64,000 bases of DNA from positions 32,001 to 96,000 of the IMG/VR virus record IMGVR_UViG_3300050821_005814, one strand, 5' to 3'. Below are positions 4,817 to 58,451 of the stretch, in pieces (position 1 is the stretch's first letter; every line of letters starts with the position of its first letter). The position numbers and the translations under genes were made by a program. The DNA is from a virus. The notes below the pieces were generated by a model that worked only from the letters and a program-made list of their open reading frames with translations, did not search any database and was not told the DNA's origin.

Positions 4817-4866
4817 GAAAAGAGGAGGGGTAGCGTGACGGGTGCCGCTAACCCGCACTACCCCTC
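4817..4866 (-). terminator. Long hairpin plus pyrimidine tract; terminator or attenuator candidate
   Basis: GAGGGGTAG 4825-4833 pairs with CTACCCCTC 4858-4866, inner CGGG/CCCG; followed on the minus strand by CTCTTTTC. Confidence 0.5.
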
Positions 4867-5627: not shown

Positions 5628-5990
5628 TCAACGTGAGATCAGAGGGATCTCCCCTCGTAGTTCTGCAAGCGCCCCCGCGATACCCGTCCCTGTCGAATAG
5701 CCATCGGACGGACCAAGAGGCGGCACAGCAGCACCAAACCCCTCCCATGTCTTGATGACCTTAGGAGGGAGTAACGATGAATCGACTGGATAGTCGCCGA
5801 GCTCCTTGACTGCCTCAAGGGCAGTCATCGGCTCAATGCGACCATCCTGGATCAGGCGCATGATTGAATCGACTGTCATCTGCAGTCGATTAGCTTGCAC
5901 AAGCGCGACTACCTGCGCCGGACCGATGAACTCAAGGACCCACACCCGCCGCGCTTGCTCTACTGTCAGCTCCATCAGAAGTTCGTCCAT
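5628..5990 (-). CDS. Hypothetical protein
   Basis: 120 aa, in operon orientation, GGGGGA SD. Confidence 0.7.
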   Translation of the reverse strand: MDELLMELTVEQARRVWVLEFIGPAQVVALVQANRLQMTVDSIMRLIQDGRIEPMTALEAVKELGDYPVDSSLLPPKVIKTWEGFGAAVPPLGPSDGYSTGTGIAGALAELRGEIPLISR

Positions 5991-19127: not shown

Positions 19128-19637
19128 CTATTGCACGAGCTCAACATTGGCTCGATCAAACATCAGCACGACCTCGCGCTGCATCCAACTCATGAGCAGC
19201 GCTACCCGTTGCTGATCGGTCCATGTGACGAACCCCTCGCGCAGCATACCAGTCTGATGATCGACTGCGAATGCTCCCTTTAGTATGCGTACCCTGCACC
19301 CCTCGAACAGAATAGGGCGCTCGGGATCGTCCATATTGGACATGGACTTGATCTCGTCGATCGCGCCAGGCGGCAGTGCGACGGGACAGTTCTCGCTGTG
19401 GGAGAACAACTGGCGTACGCCGCGCGTTGATACTATCTTCTTCCATGGATCGGACAGCAGGTCGAATGCAACAAAAGCGTACCGCGAGAACAATGGCTTA
19501 ATCGCTGGCGCCTTCTTACTCGTGTAGCGCCGCAGGTAGGTCGGGCAGAACGCCTCAAACCCCTGCTGCATCATATGCGCGACAGCTAGGAACTCGGATC
19601 TAGGCAGCGTGTATACGCAATACCATTCGATCGCCAT
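19128..19637 (-). CDS. NusG/RfaH-family transcription antiterminator
   Basis: WYCVYTLPRSE, PLFSRYAFV, IVSTRGV (NGN domain), KOW GCRVRILKGAF. Confidence 0.9.
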   Translation of the reverse strand: MAIEWYCVYTLPRSEFLAVAHMMQQGFEAFCPTYLRRYTSKKAPAIKPLFSRYAFVAFDLLSDPWKKIVSTRGVRQLFSHSENCPVALPPGAIDEIKSMSNMDDPERPILFEGCRVRILKGAFAVDHQTGMLREGFVTWTDQQRVALLMSWMQREVVLMFDRANVELVQ

Positions 19638-19647
19638 GCAGCACTAT

Positions 19648-19945
19648 CCCCCGTCCGACAGCTAAGTAGCTGCCGCAGACCACAGCGGTACGACCGACTG
19701 TAGCCCCGCCAAGCTGTGAACGGGGGAACCTTATAGCGACCATTTTGGTTTGGCTGCAACGCTTTGTTTTTGGTGCAGCATTTACTACGCCTGCATACTG
19801 CTAGTGCTAGTCTGACTATAGCTTGAAGTAGATCGCGACTAGCATCCAAAAGATAGCCATGAGAAAGCCTCCTTTGGCTACATCATAATAGCGGGTGAAA
19901 GTCGCGATGAAGCACCCGCTCAAGTAGAAGCTACCCCCCAGTATG
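19648..19945. ncRNA. Candidate structured RNA or leader upstream of the nusG-like gene
   Basis: ORF-free tract with at least 7 nested helices (see findings). Confidence 0.45.
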
Positions 19946-20593: not shown

Positions 20594-20788
20594 TCATGGT
20601 TGCCAGCTATGTAGTGCTCGCGCCTCTTGATGCGCGAAAGCGCGCAAGCGGTCCGCCTCATCATCGGTAAGCCCTTGGATTCGGCCGCTCTCAGGCGAGT
20701 AGTGCTTCGCGAGCAACGCGGCATAGATACTGGCTGCTACCAACAGCAGCACATCCCTGAAATCATCCATGATGTACCCGCCGCACAA
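20594..20788 (-). CDS. Small hypothetical protein
   Basis: Short ORF in operon orientation. Confidence 0.4.
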   Translation of the reverse strand: MCGGYIMDDFRDVLLLVAASIYAALLAKHYSPESGRIQGLTDDEADRLRAFAHQEARALHSWQP

Positions 20789-21320
20789 GCGCTAGCGCGC
20801 CAAGCGCTAATGCTAGTATGAACGCACTGCGCGGTTCAGGCGTGCCAATTGAAGGCGGGAGAGGAGTACCCTCAACGCATTCGTGCAGCGCAGCATCCCA
20901 ATGATGAGCTGGTTGACACGGATGATCCTCGACAGGCGTTGTCTCAATGGCGACAATACCTGGCGTGATTATGCCGAACAGCGGGAATGCTGGTATGAAC
21001 GCGCCCCCTGGTAACTCCCCGCCGCCAAACCCGAAGGGTGCTTGCGGTACAGGGAATCCAAATGGCGGCCACCATGCTGCGTTGCCATTGTCTGCATTGG
21101 ACAAGGGAGGCGGCGCAGCCATACCTACTGGTGGGACAGGAGGTGTTGGGAACTGTGCTGTTGCTGGTGGTGGGCATGCAACAACGAGTGCCAGCACAAT
21201 GGTGGCTGGCAATGGTGGGGTTCCTGCATGCCATGCAGCAGCTCCCCATCTGGCGATCACTTCAGCTTTCGTATAGGCATGCTTGGCAACTAACACGATG
21301 CAATCACTGGCACTCGGCAT
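20763..21320 (-). CDS. Pro-rich protein with C-terminal PEP-CTERM sorting motif
   Basis: C-terminus TPEPRSAFILALALGALALVRR; start ATG 21320 after AGGAG and a GGGTATATTG motif. Confidence 0.7.
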   Translation of the reverse strand: MPSASDCIVLVAKHAYTKAEVIARWGAAAWHAGTPPLPATIVLALVVACPPPATAQFPTPPVPPVGMAAPPPLSNADNGNAAWWPPFGFPVPQAPFGFGGGELPGGAFIPAFPLFGIITPGIVAIETTPVEDHPCQPAHHWDAALHECVEGTPLPPSIGTPEPRSAFILALALGALALVRRVHHG

Positions 21321-21499
21321 CTCCTGACACTCCATAGGCTCGCATGCAATATACCCCTGTCCCCACCAATACCAATACGCTGGCGACGGGGCGCTTGCCC
21401 CGTCGCATGTTCCGAAGCGTATACGCAAGCGAAGCGCAGCGTATACGCGAAAGGAACATCGTCATGCATGCGTGTGCTAGTAGTAGGTCTAGCGGCCTA

Positions 21500-22045
21500 G
21501 ACATGGTACCCCCTACATCCAGTCTCGGTAGCCAAACCGACCCCCATTGTCACTGCGCTGCGCTTCGCTCCGCTTGTTCGTGGGGACCTGCACGACCTTG
21601 CAGGTCGTGCGTCCAGTCATTGGTTGTCTAAGCATGAGTTGCGGTAGCTGAAGGGATCGTTCAAACGATTCCAAAGCTATCAGGACACACGTACCCCATG
21701 CCGGAGTACGTAGTATCCCGCAGGACAGTAGTGCCAAGCCCCTCCTTGTGCAGGTCAGCGGTCTCACAAGTCGATACATCTCCCCGCGGTTTCTGCCGCG
21801 TTGCAAGTGGGAGGGAGTCCGGTGGGAGCAGTACGTATCTGACGGCGCAAGAACAACCGGACACTACCCGCCTGTCCTTGCTCTGGGTTGCTTTCTCTCA
21901 GAGCCCAGATCACTGAGGCATAGTCAAAGCCTCCATTCAGCTAATGTGCTCTAGGACAGTCGAGGCACCCAGTCCTGTATTCTGGATCGACCCCGCTAGC
22001 GATATGGTCCTGAGGCGGCAGCGCCGCTCGCATACATCAGCCCTT
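21500..22045. ncRNA. Candidate large structured ncRNA
   Basis: About 550 nt without a credible ORF, at least 10 helices including long-range pairings. Confidence 0.5.
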
Positions 22046-22046
22046 A

Positions 22047-22056
22047 GCATATACCC
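22047..22056 (-). promoter_or_regulatory. Phage promoter motif GGGTATATGC
   Basis: Member of a recurring GGGTATA(T/A)TG family. Confidence 0.55.
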
Positions 22057-22274
22057 GACATTGCATTCATATTGCCAGTTGGTAGCGGTGCATTGGCGTT
22101 AAGCGCTTGATCTCATTGCAATCACGCCTGTCAGAATTATCTGACTTGCGCACAACCGCCTGCATTGACTATGTACTGGACTGTTTGAAACAGGGAAAGG
22201 GCATACTGCACGATGCTATGCGCGCCAGGTATAGTAAGAAGCGTAGCTAGCACCCCGTGCGGATCCATAGGACC

Positions 22275-22766
22275 ATGGCAGAGAAGGCGACTCTCGATGA
22301 ACTGATAGCGGCGCTGTCTCAGCGCGACGCGCTCAGGATCCATAAGCAGCTCCTTCATCGATTCGATGCCAAGCAAGGCAAGGTCGCCCCATTCACATCA
22401 CAGGAAGACGACTTCTACACGGCCCTGCACCGCGTGATGAATGGGCGGTTGTTGCCAAAGCTTGAGCTCGCGACGCACAAGAAAATCCATGGGCGGAACG
22501 GTTACAAGCGTGCGGCTACGCAGCTATTCACGACGTTGAAGAATGGTAGTGACGGTACGCTGCGGCGGCCGCAAATGCTGGCGCTTGCCTACGAGGCGCT
22601 TAGCTGTCTTGCGGAGGCGATGGAGGAATGGGGCATCCCTGTCTCCGCCGCCAACTTGATTATGCAGATCGACAACAACCTTGAGCATGCCCTTAACGAA
22701 GCGTACCCGGGGTATCTCGAGAACCGCATGTTGCACTACCTAGCTCCGATGCTCGAGGCTGCATAG
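22275..22766 (+). CDS. Hypothetical protein
   Basis: First gene of the rightward arm; ATG 22275 after AGGA. Confidence 0.75.
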   Translation: MAEKATLDELIAALSQRDALRIHKQLLHRFDAKQGKVAPFTSQEDDFYTALHRVMNGRLLPKLELATHKKIHGRNGYKRAATQLFTTLKNGSDGTLRRPQMLALAYEALSCLAEAMEEWGIPVSAANLIMQIDNNLEHALNEAYPGYLENRMLHYLAPMLEAA

Positions 22767-22775
22767 GGTATATTG
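22766..22775 (+). promoter_or_regulatory. Phage promoter motif GGGTATATTG
   Basis: Recurring motif, directly upstream of a structured tract. Confidence 0.6.
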
Positions 22776-22787
22776 GCTATTGTCTGC

Positions 22788-23070
22788 GCTGGTGGGAAAT
22801 GAGTGGTGTGCTGATGAACCCTCCCGCCAGCACGGATCGGATCGCTGTGCCCCCCAAAGGCAGTGATCCGTGGCGGCTCTTGTGCTTCCGTGAGAGTCGC
22901 TAAGGAGAAGGGTGCGTAGGGCCGCAACAGCCCGACTGTACGCTACGCACCCTTCACTCCCTCTAGCAGTTGGTAGTGCAGTGCCCGGTCCAGATCCCCT
23001 TAGCTTAACACGCCGCAATACAGTCATGGGACTCGCACTATGCGGGTTCGGCAATCCGCGCGCTGACTGC
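22788..23070 (+). ncRNA. Candidate structured ncRNA or 5' leader
   Basis: Five consecutive stem domains with G-U pairs on the plus strand, starting just after a promoter motif. Confidence 0.6.
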
Positions 23071-23094
23071 AATGCGTATGCAGGAGACTACAGT

Positions 23095-23598
23095 ATGCTT
23101 GTCGGCTTCAGTGCGCATCTCGATGGTGTCAACCAAATGGGATGCATGAACCTTGCGTATACGGCAGTCGGTATGCGCAACACGGACTTCAATGACGCAG
23201 GCTATGACCTTGCCAACAACTGGTGGATGCCGCCAGCCGTCGGGCTAGTCATCATGGCATTCAATGTGTGGATCAACGCTAACGCATGCGCGCCTATCAT
23301 GGCGGACTCAGCAGGGCGTGTCACGTTTCCGCCTGGCGAAGGGTTTGCGCAGTGCGGCAAGATACACTCGAGCCGCGATCGAGGCGCATCCTGGCAGCAG
23401 GTCAAAGCAGCGCCGGGGTTCAACCCCGCTGGATACCCCGGCACAGGTGGTTCTGGGAATGCCGGCATTCTCGCAAAGGCAGATGGCATGACAGCATTTC
23501 GACTGTTCATGTATACGACATCCGCTGACGGTAAGGATGAGTGCGTGATCGATGGCAATCCCGCACACACATGGTTCACAGGGTTCTATGCGCAATGA
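23095..23598 (+). CDS. Stand-alone C1q-like beta-sandwich protein
   Basis: ATG 23095 after AGGAG; GFSA...YDLANNWWMPPAVG...TWFTG. Confidence 0.6.
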   Translation: MLVGFSAHLDGVNQMGCMNLAYTAVGMRNTDFNDAGYDLANNWWMPPAVGLVIMAFNVWINANACAPIMADSAGRVTFPPGEGFAQCGKIHSSRDRGASWQQVKAAPGFNPAGYPGTGGSGNAGILAKADGMTAFRLFMYTTSADGKDECVIDGNPAHTWFTGFYAQ

Positions 23599-25730: not shown

Positions 25731-25740
25731 GGGTATAATG
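25731..25740 (+). promoter_or_regulatory. Phage promoter motif GGGTATAATG
   Basis: Intergenic, about 25 nt before ATG 25765. Confidence 0.6.
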
Positions 25741-26276: not shown

Positions 26277-27041
26277 ATGGCTGAAATGATCACCTCGAAT
26301 CGCGCTGGCCCCCTCGCTAAGCGCGTATTGCTCTACTCAGGCGGCATGGATAGCGTCTGCTTTGACAACCTGCTCTTGCCTGACGTTTGCCTGTATGTGC
26401 GCAACAAAGCGCCCTATGCTGCATGCGAAGACTACTGCGTCGAGAAACTCGAGGCGCAGGACAAGATCAAAGGTGAGCTTGTGACACTCGATGCCAATGT
26501 GCTCGATCTCTCGCAATGGGAGCGCGATGACGCAATCGTGCCCAACCGCAATGCGCATCTCGTCCTACTCGCAAGCAACTATGGCGACCAGATCTATCTC
26601 AGTTCGGTCTATGGCGATCGATCCAACGACAAGGATGAGAAGTTCTACCGCCTGATGGAAATGCTACTCGGGCATATGTGGGATGAGCAGCATTGGACAA
26701 AGCGCCGGCGCTTCCGTATCTCAAGTCCCTTCAAGATGTGGACGAAATCAACGCTTGTCGACCGCTACTTGTCTCGCGGAGGTGACCACCTTGCGCTGCT
26801 GACATCCTACTCCTGCTACCGCGGGCAACCCAAGCATTGCGGCATCTGCAAGCCTTGCTTCCGCAAACGCGTCGCGCTCGAGAACAACTATATCGAAGTG
26901 CCGCGGGGTTACTTCGAGGATGACTTCTGGCGCCAAGACTGGTTTCATGAACTGCTGCCGCGCATGCAGGAAGGCAAGTATCGAGGCGATGAGGACAAGG
27001 ATGTACTCAAGTTCCTGCGGCTAAGGAATTTGCTTGCATAG
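26277..27041 (+). CDS. queC: 7-cyano-7-deazaguanine synthase
   Basis: LLYSGGMDS, VPNRN, SYSCY...HCGICKPCFRK. Confidence 0.92.
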   Translation: MAEMITSNRAGPLAKRVLLYSGGMDSVCFDNLLLPDVCLYVRNKAPYAACEDYCVEKLEAQDKIKGELVTLDANVLDLSQWERDDAIVPNRNAHLVLLASNYGDQIYLSSVYGDRSNDKDEKFYRLMEMLLGHMWDEQHWTKRRRFRISSPFKMWTKSTLVDRYLSRGGDHLALLTSYSCYRGQPKHCGICKPCFRKRVALENNYIEVPRGYFEDDFWRQDWFHELLPRMQEGKYRGDEDKDVLKFLRLRNLLA

Positions 27042-27090
27042 CGCTGCGCATAGCTACTAGCTTGCGCAGCCTAATGGGAGAACAGTAATC

Positions 27091-27321
27091 ATGGTTGCGA
27101 GCGTAAGCTCAATTGAGGCAGTCGTACGCATAGTGCGAAAGCATGTCTCAGATGAGAAGTTTCAGGTCATCGTGTCTGAGTTGATCGATGTGCCTGGTAA
27201 TGCATCGTTCCGCGAGTCGGTCATGCGCCTCGCCGACCTTGCTAACATTGGGCTTGATGGGCGGCCAACGCATGTGCGGCAGATCCGCAAGCGCGTGCGG
27301 CTTGTGCGGGTGAAGCTATGA
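27091..27321 (+). CDS. Hypothetical protein
   Basis: 76 aa, preceded by AATGGGAGAAC. Confidence 0.65.
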   Translation: MVASVSSIEAVVRIVRKHVSDEKFQVIVSELIDVPGNASFRESVMRLADLANIGLDGRPTHVRQIRKRVRLVRVKL

Positions 27322-27647
27322 CCGACACATCTCATGACTTCAGCGGCAAGTACGATGCATGGGAACTGCGCGTGTTCGATAGCGCGACAAGCTTCTCATG
27401 CGTCACGGTCTATGGCGGTGGTAGACGCGATAGGGCGGTGTTCTCCGATCTGCCCAGCGCCTTTAACGCAGCGCGCGACATGCAGCGCACATGCGTGTAT
27501 GCAGTGTCAGGCTTTGGTCACGGCATCTGCCTCGACCGCAAGCTATGGGATGTCTGGTTAGAGCGCTGGAACGAGAACCAACTGAGTAAGAAGATCACGC
27601 CGCGGCCTGTCAAGCGCCGCCGACGCGAGGCACTTGCATCTACCTAA
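27318..27647 (+). CDS. Hypothetical protein
   Basis: 109 aa, ATGA-coupled. Confidence 0.65.
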   Translation: MTDTSHDFSGKYDAWELRVFDSATSFSCVTVYGGGRRDRAVFSDLPSAFNAARDMQRTCVYAVSGFGHGICLDRKLWDVWLERWNENQLSKKITPRPVKRRRREALAST

Positions 27648-36037: not shown

Positions 36038-37089
36038 GTAAGATTCCTGAATCTTATCGCGCCATGGATCGCATATGGTTGATCCAGAAGCATCCGTCCG
36101 ACGACAGGTATCGCGTCTGGACCTACGAAGACGATATCGACGGTCCAGCTAATGCTGTGCTGTTGAATGGCGCGACAAGTACATCGCTCGAGCAAGCAGG
36201 CGAAGACGTGCTGCACAATATGTATGGCGCTACCAAGCGCCAAGAACTTCGCTTGGAAGATGAGCTCAAGCTTGTCCGCAGGCTAAGCGGCGAGATTCGC
36301 ACAGCCATCGACAACCCGCGGATCATTGGGCGTTTCATGCGCTCTTTGGAAGCAACGGCTGAGCTCGAGAAGGAGCCGCGCTTTGATGAAGTAGAATGGA
36401 GTCTGCCACGGCAGACCGTACAAGCATTGGCGCAAGCCGAAGCGCAAAACATACTGTGCGCTTTGCCGCCTACTGCCTTGGTGTTTAGGCAGCACTCCGG
36501 TGCACTACTCAACGATATGGTACATGCATGGAACGCCACATTTTACAATGGGCGCCTATGGGACAAGCAGCAGGTGGATGCTGCCAGTCAAGCCATAGGG
36601 TTGCCGCAGGGGCGCTGGCGGTGCTGGATCAAAAACTGGAGCAATCCTGACATTGCTGAGCAACTGCGCACCTTCAAGTTCAAAGGTAAGCTGTACTGGT
36701 GCGCACGGGCATCAAAGCATGCAATCCCAGAGGGCTACGTTGAACAGTTTGAGCGTCCAACGCGCCCACGGACTAAAGACCGTTACCTGAACGGTATGGG
36801 TTTGGTGCGCGATGCCGCACAGCACCAATTAGATCTTATAGCACGAAACAAGATGCCTGAGCTGCATTTCAAGCTTGCGCCTAAGTTCAACCAGCGCCTC
36901 GCCGCCAAGATCGATATCTGCATGCAAAAGACATCTGGTGCTATACCTGCGAAGGTCATATGCGAAAGGGTCGGCGCGAGGTCACCTACCAACAAGCGCC
37001 GCGTATACAATATCCTCGCGCGCTTGGCCGGAGAAGGCTACATCCAACTTGGTAAGGATGGCTTCTATACCTTAGCGTCGCGCGCATGA
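36034..37089 (+). CDS. Hypothetical protein with C-terminal winged HTH
   Basis: 351 aa; VYNILARLAGEGYI. Confidence 0.7.
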   Translation: MSKIPESYRAMDRIWLIQKHPSDDRYRVWTYEDDIDGPANAVLLNGATSTSLEQAGEDVLHNMYGATKRQELRLEDELKLVRRLSGEIRTAIDNPRIIGRFMRSLEATAELEKEPRFDEVEWSLPRQTVQALAQAEAQNILCALPPTALVFRQHSGALLNDMVHAWNATFYNGRLWDKQQVDAASQAIGLPQGRWRCWIKNWSNPDIAEQLRTFKFKGKLYWCARASKHAIPEGYVEQFERPTRPRTKDRYLNGMGLVRDAAQHQLDLIARNKMPELHFKLAPKFNQRLAAKIDICMQKTSGAIPAKVICERVGARSPTNKRRVYNILARLAGEGYIQLGKDGFYTLASRA

Positions 37090-37478
37090 GCGACTGGATT
37101 CCACCCGAGACAGGCGGCAGCTTCGTTGCGCTGCCTGTCTCTGCTGTGCGCGATGCAGCACATGCAACGCTCACCAACATTGATCAGCATCGCACCGAGC
37201 TGCATGCGCAAGCGATTGAAGCGGCCCAAAGCGGCTGGTTCGGCAAGCGCTCAAAAGAACGAGCGGAACGACTGTATCGGCAGACGCGCCTACATCGTGC
37301 GAATAGCAACTGCTATTCAGAACACTACTCTGCCGCTGCGCAATTGTATGCACTGACAACCGCTGCGCTGCGATTGCAAGCTGATGATGAAATGATGGTG
37401 ACTGTGGCCGACTTCCGTATGATCGGCAGTGCGTGGCTCAAACTCCACGAACCAGCCAGTACCAGTAACAAGGAGTAG
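37086..37478 (+). CDS. Hypothetical protein
   Basis: 130 aa, ATGA-coupled. Confidence 0.65.
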   Translation: MSDWIPPETGGSFVALPVSAVRDAAHATLTNIDQHRTELHAQAIEAAQSGWFGKRSKERAERLYRQTRLHRANSNCYSEHYSAAAQLYALTTAALRLQADDEMMVTVADFRMIGSAWLKLHEPASTSNKE

Positions 37479-57552: not shown

Positions 57553-57939
57553 GGGGTCCGACCCCCCGCCCCCATTCCCAGCGGTCAACGGACTAGCTAA
57601 GCGCTGCTTAGCTGCTCCCCACCAGGACCCCTTAGCGCAGCGCAGCGCGGGATTGGGGAATGGGTGACGGAGTACCTGACGAGGACCTCTTGCTTCGGTG
57701 CGCTGACGTCTGCACCAGCAACGGGACCAGCCGGACCGCCGTGACAGACATGAGTCGGCAGCGTGCAGTATCCTAGTAGCTTCTAGGCAACGAAATGCAT
57801 GCGACGGTGCGCATAGCGCAGCGCGAGTCCCCTTAGCTAGCAGCAATGCAGCGGGAGTGGGGTAGCGCTAAGCGCGGGACTACGCGCCTTAGCATAGCAG
57901 GACGGACCACACGCTCGGTTTGGGACTCATGCTGGGTGC
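57553..57939 (+). ncRNA. Candidate structured ncRNA upstream of the early genes
   Basis: ORF-free, multiple nested long-range helices. Confidence 0.5.
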
Positions 57940-58036
57940 AAACATAAAGTTCTCTCTCATTGTTCTACTGATGAAAGCGTCAATGCTTTTGCATATGCCT
58001 CTAGCGCCGCAGCGCGGGATTAGGCGATATATGCAA

Positions 58037-58063
58037 TTGCATTGACGCTATGCAGCTATAGCA
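58037..58063 (+). promoter_or_regulatory. Putative host sigma70-type early promoter
   Basis: TTGCAT/TTGACG ... GCTATAGC just before the first leader hairpin at 58072. Confidence 0.4.
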
Positions 58064-58109
58064 CCTTACGCTGCACTGATGATTCCTGGTGCACAATGGG
58101 AGAACAAAT

Positions 58110-58451
58110 ATGCTCAAAGCGAAGCGCGTGACGATCGAACGTGACCATCGCGCTAACGGCTACATTGCTGGCTGGAACGGCCGCGTCCCAGGCGACGATC
58201 ACCCGGAGTATTTGGAGGGACACAAGCAAGGCGTTGCAGCAGCGAAAAGAGCAAATGACGTCGAAACGTTCGCTGCGCGTACGAGAAAGCATCATAAGGA
58301 CGTGCGTGCTGCTGCTAAAGCGCTACGCGACGCTGCGCCTGACCTTGCTAATGCTTTACGACTCGCAAGGGAATTGGCATGCACAGCTGGCGGCTTGCGG
58401 CACGACCAAATTGACTCATTGCTCGCGCATATGATTCTATACGGCTACTAA
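58110..58451 (+). CDS. Early hypothetical protein
   Basis: ATG after GGGAGA leader; ends ILYGY. Confidence 0.75.
   Translation: MLKAKRVTIERDHRANGYIAGWNGRVPGDDHPEYLEGHKQGVAAAKRANDVETFAARTRKHHKDVRAAAKALRDAAPDLANALRLARELACTAGGLRHDQIDSLLAHMILYGY

Follow-up and report, generated by a model that had tools for sequence, protein, structure and literature searches.

A strand-specific array of four abutting hairpins between a promoter-like motif and a C1q-like gene in an environmental phage

The DNA analysed here, referred to as the window, is a stretch of 64,000 nucleotides that covers bases 32001-96000 of an IMG/VR virus record of 106,805 bases (IMGVR_UViG_3300050821_005814). The record is from an uncultivated, environmental phage, is rated complete by CheckV, and has a GC content of ~57%. 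Unless stated otherwise, positions are those of the window. The genes are arranged in two arms that diverge at ~21.4-22.25 kb: the leftward arm consists of structural genes, including a portal protein fused to a pyrophosphatase-like domain, and the rightward arm consists of replication genes, including a primase, a UDG-PolA fusion, and a ribonucleotide reductase. The cumulative GC skew has its minimum at ~21-22 kb, coinciding with the switch in transcription direction. A hairpin array (GC 61%) is placed exactly between two co-oriented genes of the rightward arm, a 169-aa ORF and a C1q-like gene, with the primase gene 1.1 kb downstream. The features of the locus are as follows.

22257-22766, plus strand: 169-aa ORF, the first gene of the rightward arm, whose TAG stop overlaps the promoter-like motif
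22766-22775, plus strand: promoter-like motif GGGTATATTG, resembling an extended −10 element (TATATT at 22769-22774)
22782-22837, plus strand: hairpin H1, a 5-bp outer stem and a 10-bp stem with a 24-nt loop
22838-22870, plus strand: hairpin H2, an 11-bp stem with an 11-nt C-rich loop and no spacer after H1
22871-22902, plus strand: hairpin H3, a ~14-bp stem with G-U pairs, abutting H2
22904-22960, plus strand: hairpin H4, a 3-bp stem and a perfect 13-bp stem
22964-23072, plus strand: proposed multibranch domain, unsupported as RNA structure
22981-23094, plus strand: probable coding extension of the C1q-like gene from GTG 22981, with a Tat-like signal
23095-23598, plus strand: C1q/TNF-fold domain gene, from ATG 23095

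The 169-aa ORF has a gene-like codon score, and its protein has no match in Pfam or PHROG, no homologue other than itself among 5.8 billion proteins, and nothing informative in the ESM Atlas. The downstream gene had been called C1q-like from the letters of the sequence, and the predicted fold confirms its product as a C1q/TNF-type jelly roll. The AlphaFold2 model (pLDDT 91.2, pTM 0.86) is matched by Foldseek at a probability of 1.00 to Caprin-2, C1QL, C1q heads, and the spike knob of phage phi812, with TM-scores (by target) of up to 0.81. The C1q-fold family comprises at least 452 representative proteins. Its two members closest to the phage protein, P0002 and P0003 from Logan assemblies (64% and 62% identity), begin with twin-arginine signal peptides, and Sec or Tat signals are also present in many stand-alone members. 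Elsewhere in the family, the domain forms the C-terminus of fibre-like proteins of 200 to over 1000 aa (L005, for example). The gene is found elsewhere in unrelated contexts. In scans of JGI metagenomes, IMG/VR, and GTDB genomes with an alignment of the C1q-like protein, two records of a different phage (L004 and L007) encode a homologue of 52% identity next to a terminase gene, and small ORFs occupy the place where the hairpin array would be, with no such leader present.

The element between the two genes is a strand-specific, exceptionally stable array of four hairpins, ~180 nt in length. The sequence-only reading had described a fully structured RNA of about 280 nt at 22788-23070, and every helix that it listed there is present. 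Comparison of the fold with shuffles upholds this description for ~180 nt (22782-22960) and not for the last third. Each of the four hairpins is individually significant, with folding energies of −25.7 kcal/mol for H1 (z −4.02), −17.4 kcal/mol for H2 (z −4.63), −16.0 kcal/mol for H3 (z −3.14), and −29 kcal/mol for H4 (z −4.76), and the gaps between neighbours are 0-1 nt. The paired length is 15 bp in H1 and 16 bp plus an apical extension in H4, where the 13-bp perfect inverted repeat was also found as repeat I18. Buried within H4 are an AAGGAG (22902-22907) and the codon GTG 22912. Folded together (22778-22962), the four hairpins reach −90.8 kcal/mol with a z of −5.69, none of 200 shuffles is as good, and the minimum-free-energy and centroid structures agree. 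When the whole 303 nt are folded, z is −2.85 on the plus strand and −1.68 on the minus strand, and the signal is unevenly spread.

In a GC-corrected scan of the whole 106.8-kb genome in 185-nt windows, which was phased on the target and thus favours it slightly, the array comes first among the 1777 plus-strand windows, and its rank on the minus strand is 87. An unphased scan in 300-nt windows places the region at rank 8 of 1066, and most of the windows that outrank it belong to the known hairpin-cassette region; a local hairpin-density scan at the threshold used was not discriminating. The minus strand of the whole array folds at −78.8 kcal/mol (z −3.05), and H1-H3 are weaker there than on the plus strand, H3 falling to −7.0 kcal/mol (z −1.21). 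This strand bias arises because of G-U pairs, in keeping with the statement in the sequence-only reading that the wobbles are G-U on the plus strand. With DNA parameters, the plus strand of the array has a z of −4.61.

Downstream of H4 the picture changes. A multibranch domain had been proposed at 22966-23070, so that the structured tract would run up to the Shine-Dalgarno sequence of the C1q-like gene. The stretch 22964-23072 folds like its shuffles (z −0.70, with 53 of 200 as good; minus strand z −0.14), and this last part of the tract coincides with a probable coding extension. Upstream of its ATG, the C1q-like gene has an open frame that extends back to 22894 and includes two GTG codons, 22912 and 22981. 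By codon usage, 22981-23094 resembles coding sequence (likelihood ratio 4.8) and 22912-22980 non-coding sequence (likelihood ratio 0.04). A Tat signal has an S/T-R-R-x-F-L-K motif, a stretch of moderate hydrophobicity, and an A-x-A cleavage site. In the translation of 22981-23094, T-R-R is followed by 14 uncharged residues and by A-Y-A, which stops four residues short of the methionine at 23095. In a MAFFT alignment, the RR of the extension falls on the RR of the homologues, including the Tat motifs of P0002, P0003, P0115, and P0061, and the residues after the RR (N-T-V-M) depart from the Tat consensus. This pattern, which was defined after the sequence had been seen, occurs in 0.2-0.3% of random open 61-codon windows. 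Neither PF10518 nor the NCBIfam TAT models match the extension, and the homologues' own matches to them are only faint. Taken together, 22981-23094 probably encodes a Tat-like signal, which may be functional or a recent relic, and in both cases it is not RNA structure.

The start codons can be further compared by the energy required to open the mRNA from −18 to +6 around each of them. Among 23 reference genes this energy is 9.2 ± 2.5 kcal/mol, with a maximum of 15.9. Both GTG 22981 (8-9 kcal/mol) and ATG 23095 (10-11 kcal/mol) are normal by this measure, and these two likely start codons are not occluded by the array. ATG 23095 is preceded, 8 nt upstream, by CAGGAG, the usual ribosome-binding site of the phage; GTG 22981 has no Shine-Dalgarno sequence before it. 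GTG 22912, which the sequence-only reading had raised as the start of an upstream ORF extension, lies inside H4, where opening costs 24-28 kcal/mol. Its use as a start is unlikely given this burial and the non-coding-like codons that follow it, and because of the opening energy and the codon result, the placement of AAGGAG and GTG inside H4 is probably incidental. An operator that sequesters the ribosome-binding site of the start actually translated is not supported, as H4 covers the disfavoured GTG 22912 and the likely starts at 22981 and 23095 are normally accessible. A 110-aa ORF on the reverse strand that spans the region was set aside, its codon usage being non-coding-like.

Directly upstream of H1 lies the motif GGGTATATTG, noted from the outset as a phage promoter motif. 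At up to one mismatch it occurs 8 times against 1.21 expected, a count reached by none of 100 shuffles. All eight copies are co-oriented with the local genes and most are just upstream of gene starts, a pattern consistent with an extended −10-type promoter. Such a promoter would place the transcription start at ~22781-22782, ~7 nt past TATATT and at the first base of the outer stem of H1. The 60 nt that follow the motif at this locus have a z of −3.73, while at the other seven sites the RNA downstream is unstructured (z −0.5 to +1.7) and the leaders are short, ~20-30 nt. As only this copy has structure after it, the structured leader is peculiar to this transcription unit. One perfect copy of the motif (21347-21356, minus strand) is inside the 5′ part of ORF 20763-21428, and the start of this gene, which encodes a PEP-CTERM-like protein, probably lies downstream of that internal copy.

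Searches for relatives leave the array, on present evidence, as a single orphan sequence. The earlier remark that no known family was recognised agrees with Rfam 15, which gives no match at the gathering score over the whole window and none at E up to 10 over 21300-23300; a search for tRNA or tmRNA found none. By blastn against 50,697 phage records, there was no match to the element. Scans of IMG/VR anchored on both flanking genes, the primase, and the DNA polymerase recovered relatives of 26-32% identity at best, which are not syntenic; no relative carrying H1-H4, and none close to the phage, was found in the collections reached. An exact-pattern scan for H4 in IMG/VR gave no matches. The pattern for H2 was too unspecific for the GTDB genomes, where it gave at least 120 chance matches scattered over unrelated phyla; none of these showed extended similarity. 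A covariance model of H1-H4 finds only itself in the genome, with no paralogue, and nothing in three distant records. The array is also not a copy of the hairpin cassettes of the genome, with which it shares nothing, and complementarity to the leader elsewhere in the genome is near expectation (17 11-mers against ~10).

Intrinsic termination was considered for H1-H4 and rejected because none of the four hairpins is followed by a U-tract; a terminator scan finds none there. Canonical U-tract terminators are found elsewhere in the same genome, and the stem and U-tract terminators at 457-482 and 4818-4866 (both minus strand) show that ordinary terminators are in use in this phage and its host. 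At 22788-22795, within the 5′ arm of H1, lies the Chi octamer GCTGGTGG of E. coli. This octamer occurs 5 times in the window against 3.0 expected, and its presence in H1 is probably due to chance.

What, then, is the ~180-nt element? It is most likely a leader, and we tentatively propose that H1-H4 form a cis-acting structured 5′ leader of the C1q-like mRNA, with a stabilising or insulating function. The proposal is tentative in that both the start of transcription and the stabilising effect are inferred. The original suggestion of a phage ncRNA or regulatory leader stands for the first ~180 nt, with their exceptional and plus-strand-specific fold, and not for the full 280 nt. Under the leader proposal, transcription would start at the extended −10-type promoter so that the transcript begins at the foot of H1. 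With four abutting hairpins there would be hardly any single-stranded RNA within the first 180 nt, and the leader would offer no free 5′ end for 5′-end-dependent decay and no RNase E or Rho loading sites on a long untranslated stretch. In this way the array would stabilise and insulate, in cis, the transcript of a gene whose leader is long where those of its neighbours are not. It would then hand over to an accessible initiation region in which the probable start codons are unmasked, and translation could begin from GTG 22981 (giving a form with the Tat-like signal), from ATG 23095 (giving a signal-less form), or from both.

Several of the results above count for the leader proposal: the fold and its plus-strand rank of first against 87 on the minus strand, the enriched and co-oriented GGGTATATTG with structure after this copy only, stems that lack U-tracts, start sites that are normally accessible, and a reverse ORF that is non-coding-like. 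Counting against it are the 52%-identity relative in L007, which has no such leader, the missing Shine-Dalgarno sequence at GTG 22981, and the lack of a homologue of the element in the collections searched. In addition, a single 5′ hairpin suffices for stabilisation, and four therefore suggest something more specific. The 5′ UTR of E. coli ompA and the leader of T7 gene 10 are 5′-terminal stem-loop stabilisers of mRNA that consist of one or two hairpins. The phage element resembles them in placing a stable hairpin at the probable 5′ end, in cis and upstream of an accessible ribosome-binding site. It differs from them in having four abutting hairpins over 180 nt, in the lack of any sequence relation, and in a start that is assigned from the motif.

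If the leader works as proposed, it would be a compact, natural, fully base-paired 5′ module that shields a phage mRNA. As the closest relatives of the C1q-fold gene are exported, it also raises the question of whether the phage exports a C1q-like protein through the Tat pathway of its host or, alternatively, whether it makes signal and signal-less forms of the protein from two start codons. As an orphan, the element is of present value as a lead for transcript mapping and not as a new RNA class.

Other explanations of the array draw on the same evidence. Its position exactly between two co-oriented genes would also suit an intercistronic module in a read-through transcript from the 169-aa gene, in which the hairpins serve as RNase III-type processing sites or as barriers to 3′ exonucleases. 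RNase III processing hairpins are known from the early genes of phage T7 (R0.3-R1.3) and from the lambda N leader, where they lie in early or middle transcripts. Like these, the hairpins described here are large and intergenic, and they lack the U-tracts of a terminator; the 16 bp and apical extension of H4 also count in favour of such a role. A further point in favour is that long hairpins of one family (I1-I11) occupy the gaps between early genes of the same genome. These cassettes (58-64 kb of the window) are on the same strand and have intergenic stems of 10-13 bp, but they form one repeated family, associated with stop codons and with a ribosome-binding-site motif common to its members, whereas the four hairpins of the array are unique and share no sequence with the cassettes or with each other. 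A site of the T7 R1.1 type spans some two helical turns of irregular duplex RNA between cistrons; H4 offers 16 bp plus its apical extension, and H1 15 bp. Classic RNase III substrates are ~20 bp, a length that stems of 10-14 bp do not reach, and even when H4 is counted at 16 bp, the array has shorter stems than those of T7 and lambda N and joins four different hairpins in tandem, known here from sequence. With the promoter-like motif directly upstream as well, a processing or protection module appears unlikely. The same motif, followed at once by abutting stem-loops at the head of the rightward arm, invites the idea that the RNA itself is functional, as a put-like antiterminator, as a leader that recruits a phage NusG paralogue, or as a trans-acting decoy or small RNA. 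The phage does encode a NusG-like antiterminator (19128-19637, minus strand), which matches phrog_6386, "transcription antiterminator", at an E of 2.7e-11, and the array is the strongest fold in the genome in the 185-nt scan. The put RNAs of phage HK022 (putL and putR) are two adjacent stem-loops that act in cis and allow read-through of terminators without protein factors. The likeness to put lies in stem-loops 0-1 nt apart that begin 6-7 nt after a −10-like motif and precede a long run of co-oriented genes. The array has four hairpins against two, however, with no detectable similarity, no demonstrated downstream terminators, and a promoter assigned from its motif; a literature search on put RNA returned nothing relevant. 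Further promoter motifs at 25731, 27674, 28511, and 35894 show that the arm comprises more than one operon, the number of terminator-like sites downstream does not exceed chance, and there is no terminator to define a discrete small RNA. Given also the absence of a match in Rfam even at E 10, a functional RNA of this broad kind is improbable. The specific version in which H1-H4 are a new antitermination RNA at the head of the rightward replication arm, either protein-independent or dependent on the NusG paralogue, is highly improbable. Were it true, the fold of the nascent transcript would make RNA polymerase resist termination, and the array would represent a second, unrelated put-like class.

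The burial of AAGGAG and GTG 22912 in H4 gives rise to another reading, in which H4 is a translational operator that hides both and gates a long, 228-aa form of the C1q-like protein. The two sequences are 4 nt apart within the stem, and their opening energy is 24-28 kcal/mol. In this reading, H4 would be opened through translational coupling by H1-H3 or by a 34-codon ORF (22799-22903), whose stop codon at 22901-22903 ends 1 nt before H4. The codons that such a long form would use (22912-22980) are non-coding-like, the codon usage of the 34-codon ORF is uninformative (likelihood ratio 0.67), and the start of that ORF is poorly accessible (15 kcal/mol) and has no properly spaced Shine-Dalgarno sequence. 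We therefore regard an operator as very unlikely. Hairpins acting at the DNA level, extruded or in single-stranded DNA, would point to a replication origin or priming signal near the primase, or to a recombination site. The GC skew minimum, the nearby primase gene, and a fold that is significant with DNA parameters are in line with this, but the GC skew turn coincides with the switch in transcription direction, the G-U-based strand bias favours RNA, and the region, at 61% GC, has no iterons, direct repeats, or AT-rich stretch. A DNA-level role is accordingly given little probability. Finally, the array could have no present function, as a relic of the arrival of the C1q-like gene or a chance cluster of palindromes in a GC-rich spacer. 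The unrelated contexts of the gene elsewhere suit such an origin, as does an array without relatives in the collections searched. Its first rank among 1777 windows, the 200 shuffles of which none is as good, and four helices that keep G-U and not A-C mismatches on the transcribed strand speak against it, and we consider the absence of function doubtful enough to call improbable.

Beyond the leader candidate, the genome scans point to several other structured tracts. The most structured 300-nt window of the plus strand is at genome positions 100,400-100,800 (window coordinate ~68,500, outside the window), with a GC of 68%, a folding energy of −166.7 kcal/mol, and a GC-corrected z of −3.96. On the minus strand, the top 185-nt windows are 5678-5922, 57938-58122, 19598-19782, 21338-21522, and 37058-37242 (z −3.2 to −3.65), one of them upstream of the NusG-like gene and one where the two arms meet. 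An intergenic stretch at 27030-27330 (z −2.5) holds one cassette-type hairpin together with the ribosome-binding-site motif GGGAGAAC, and the ATG at ~27091 that follows this motif may open a small unannotated ORF.
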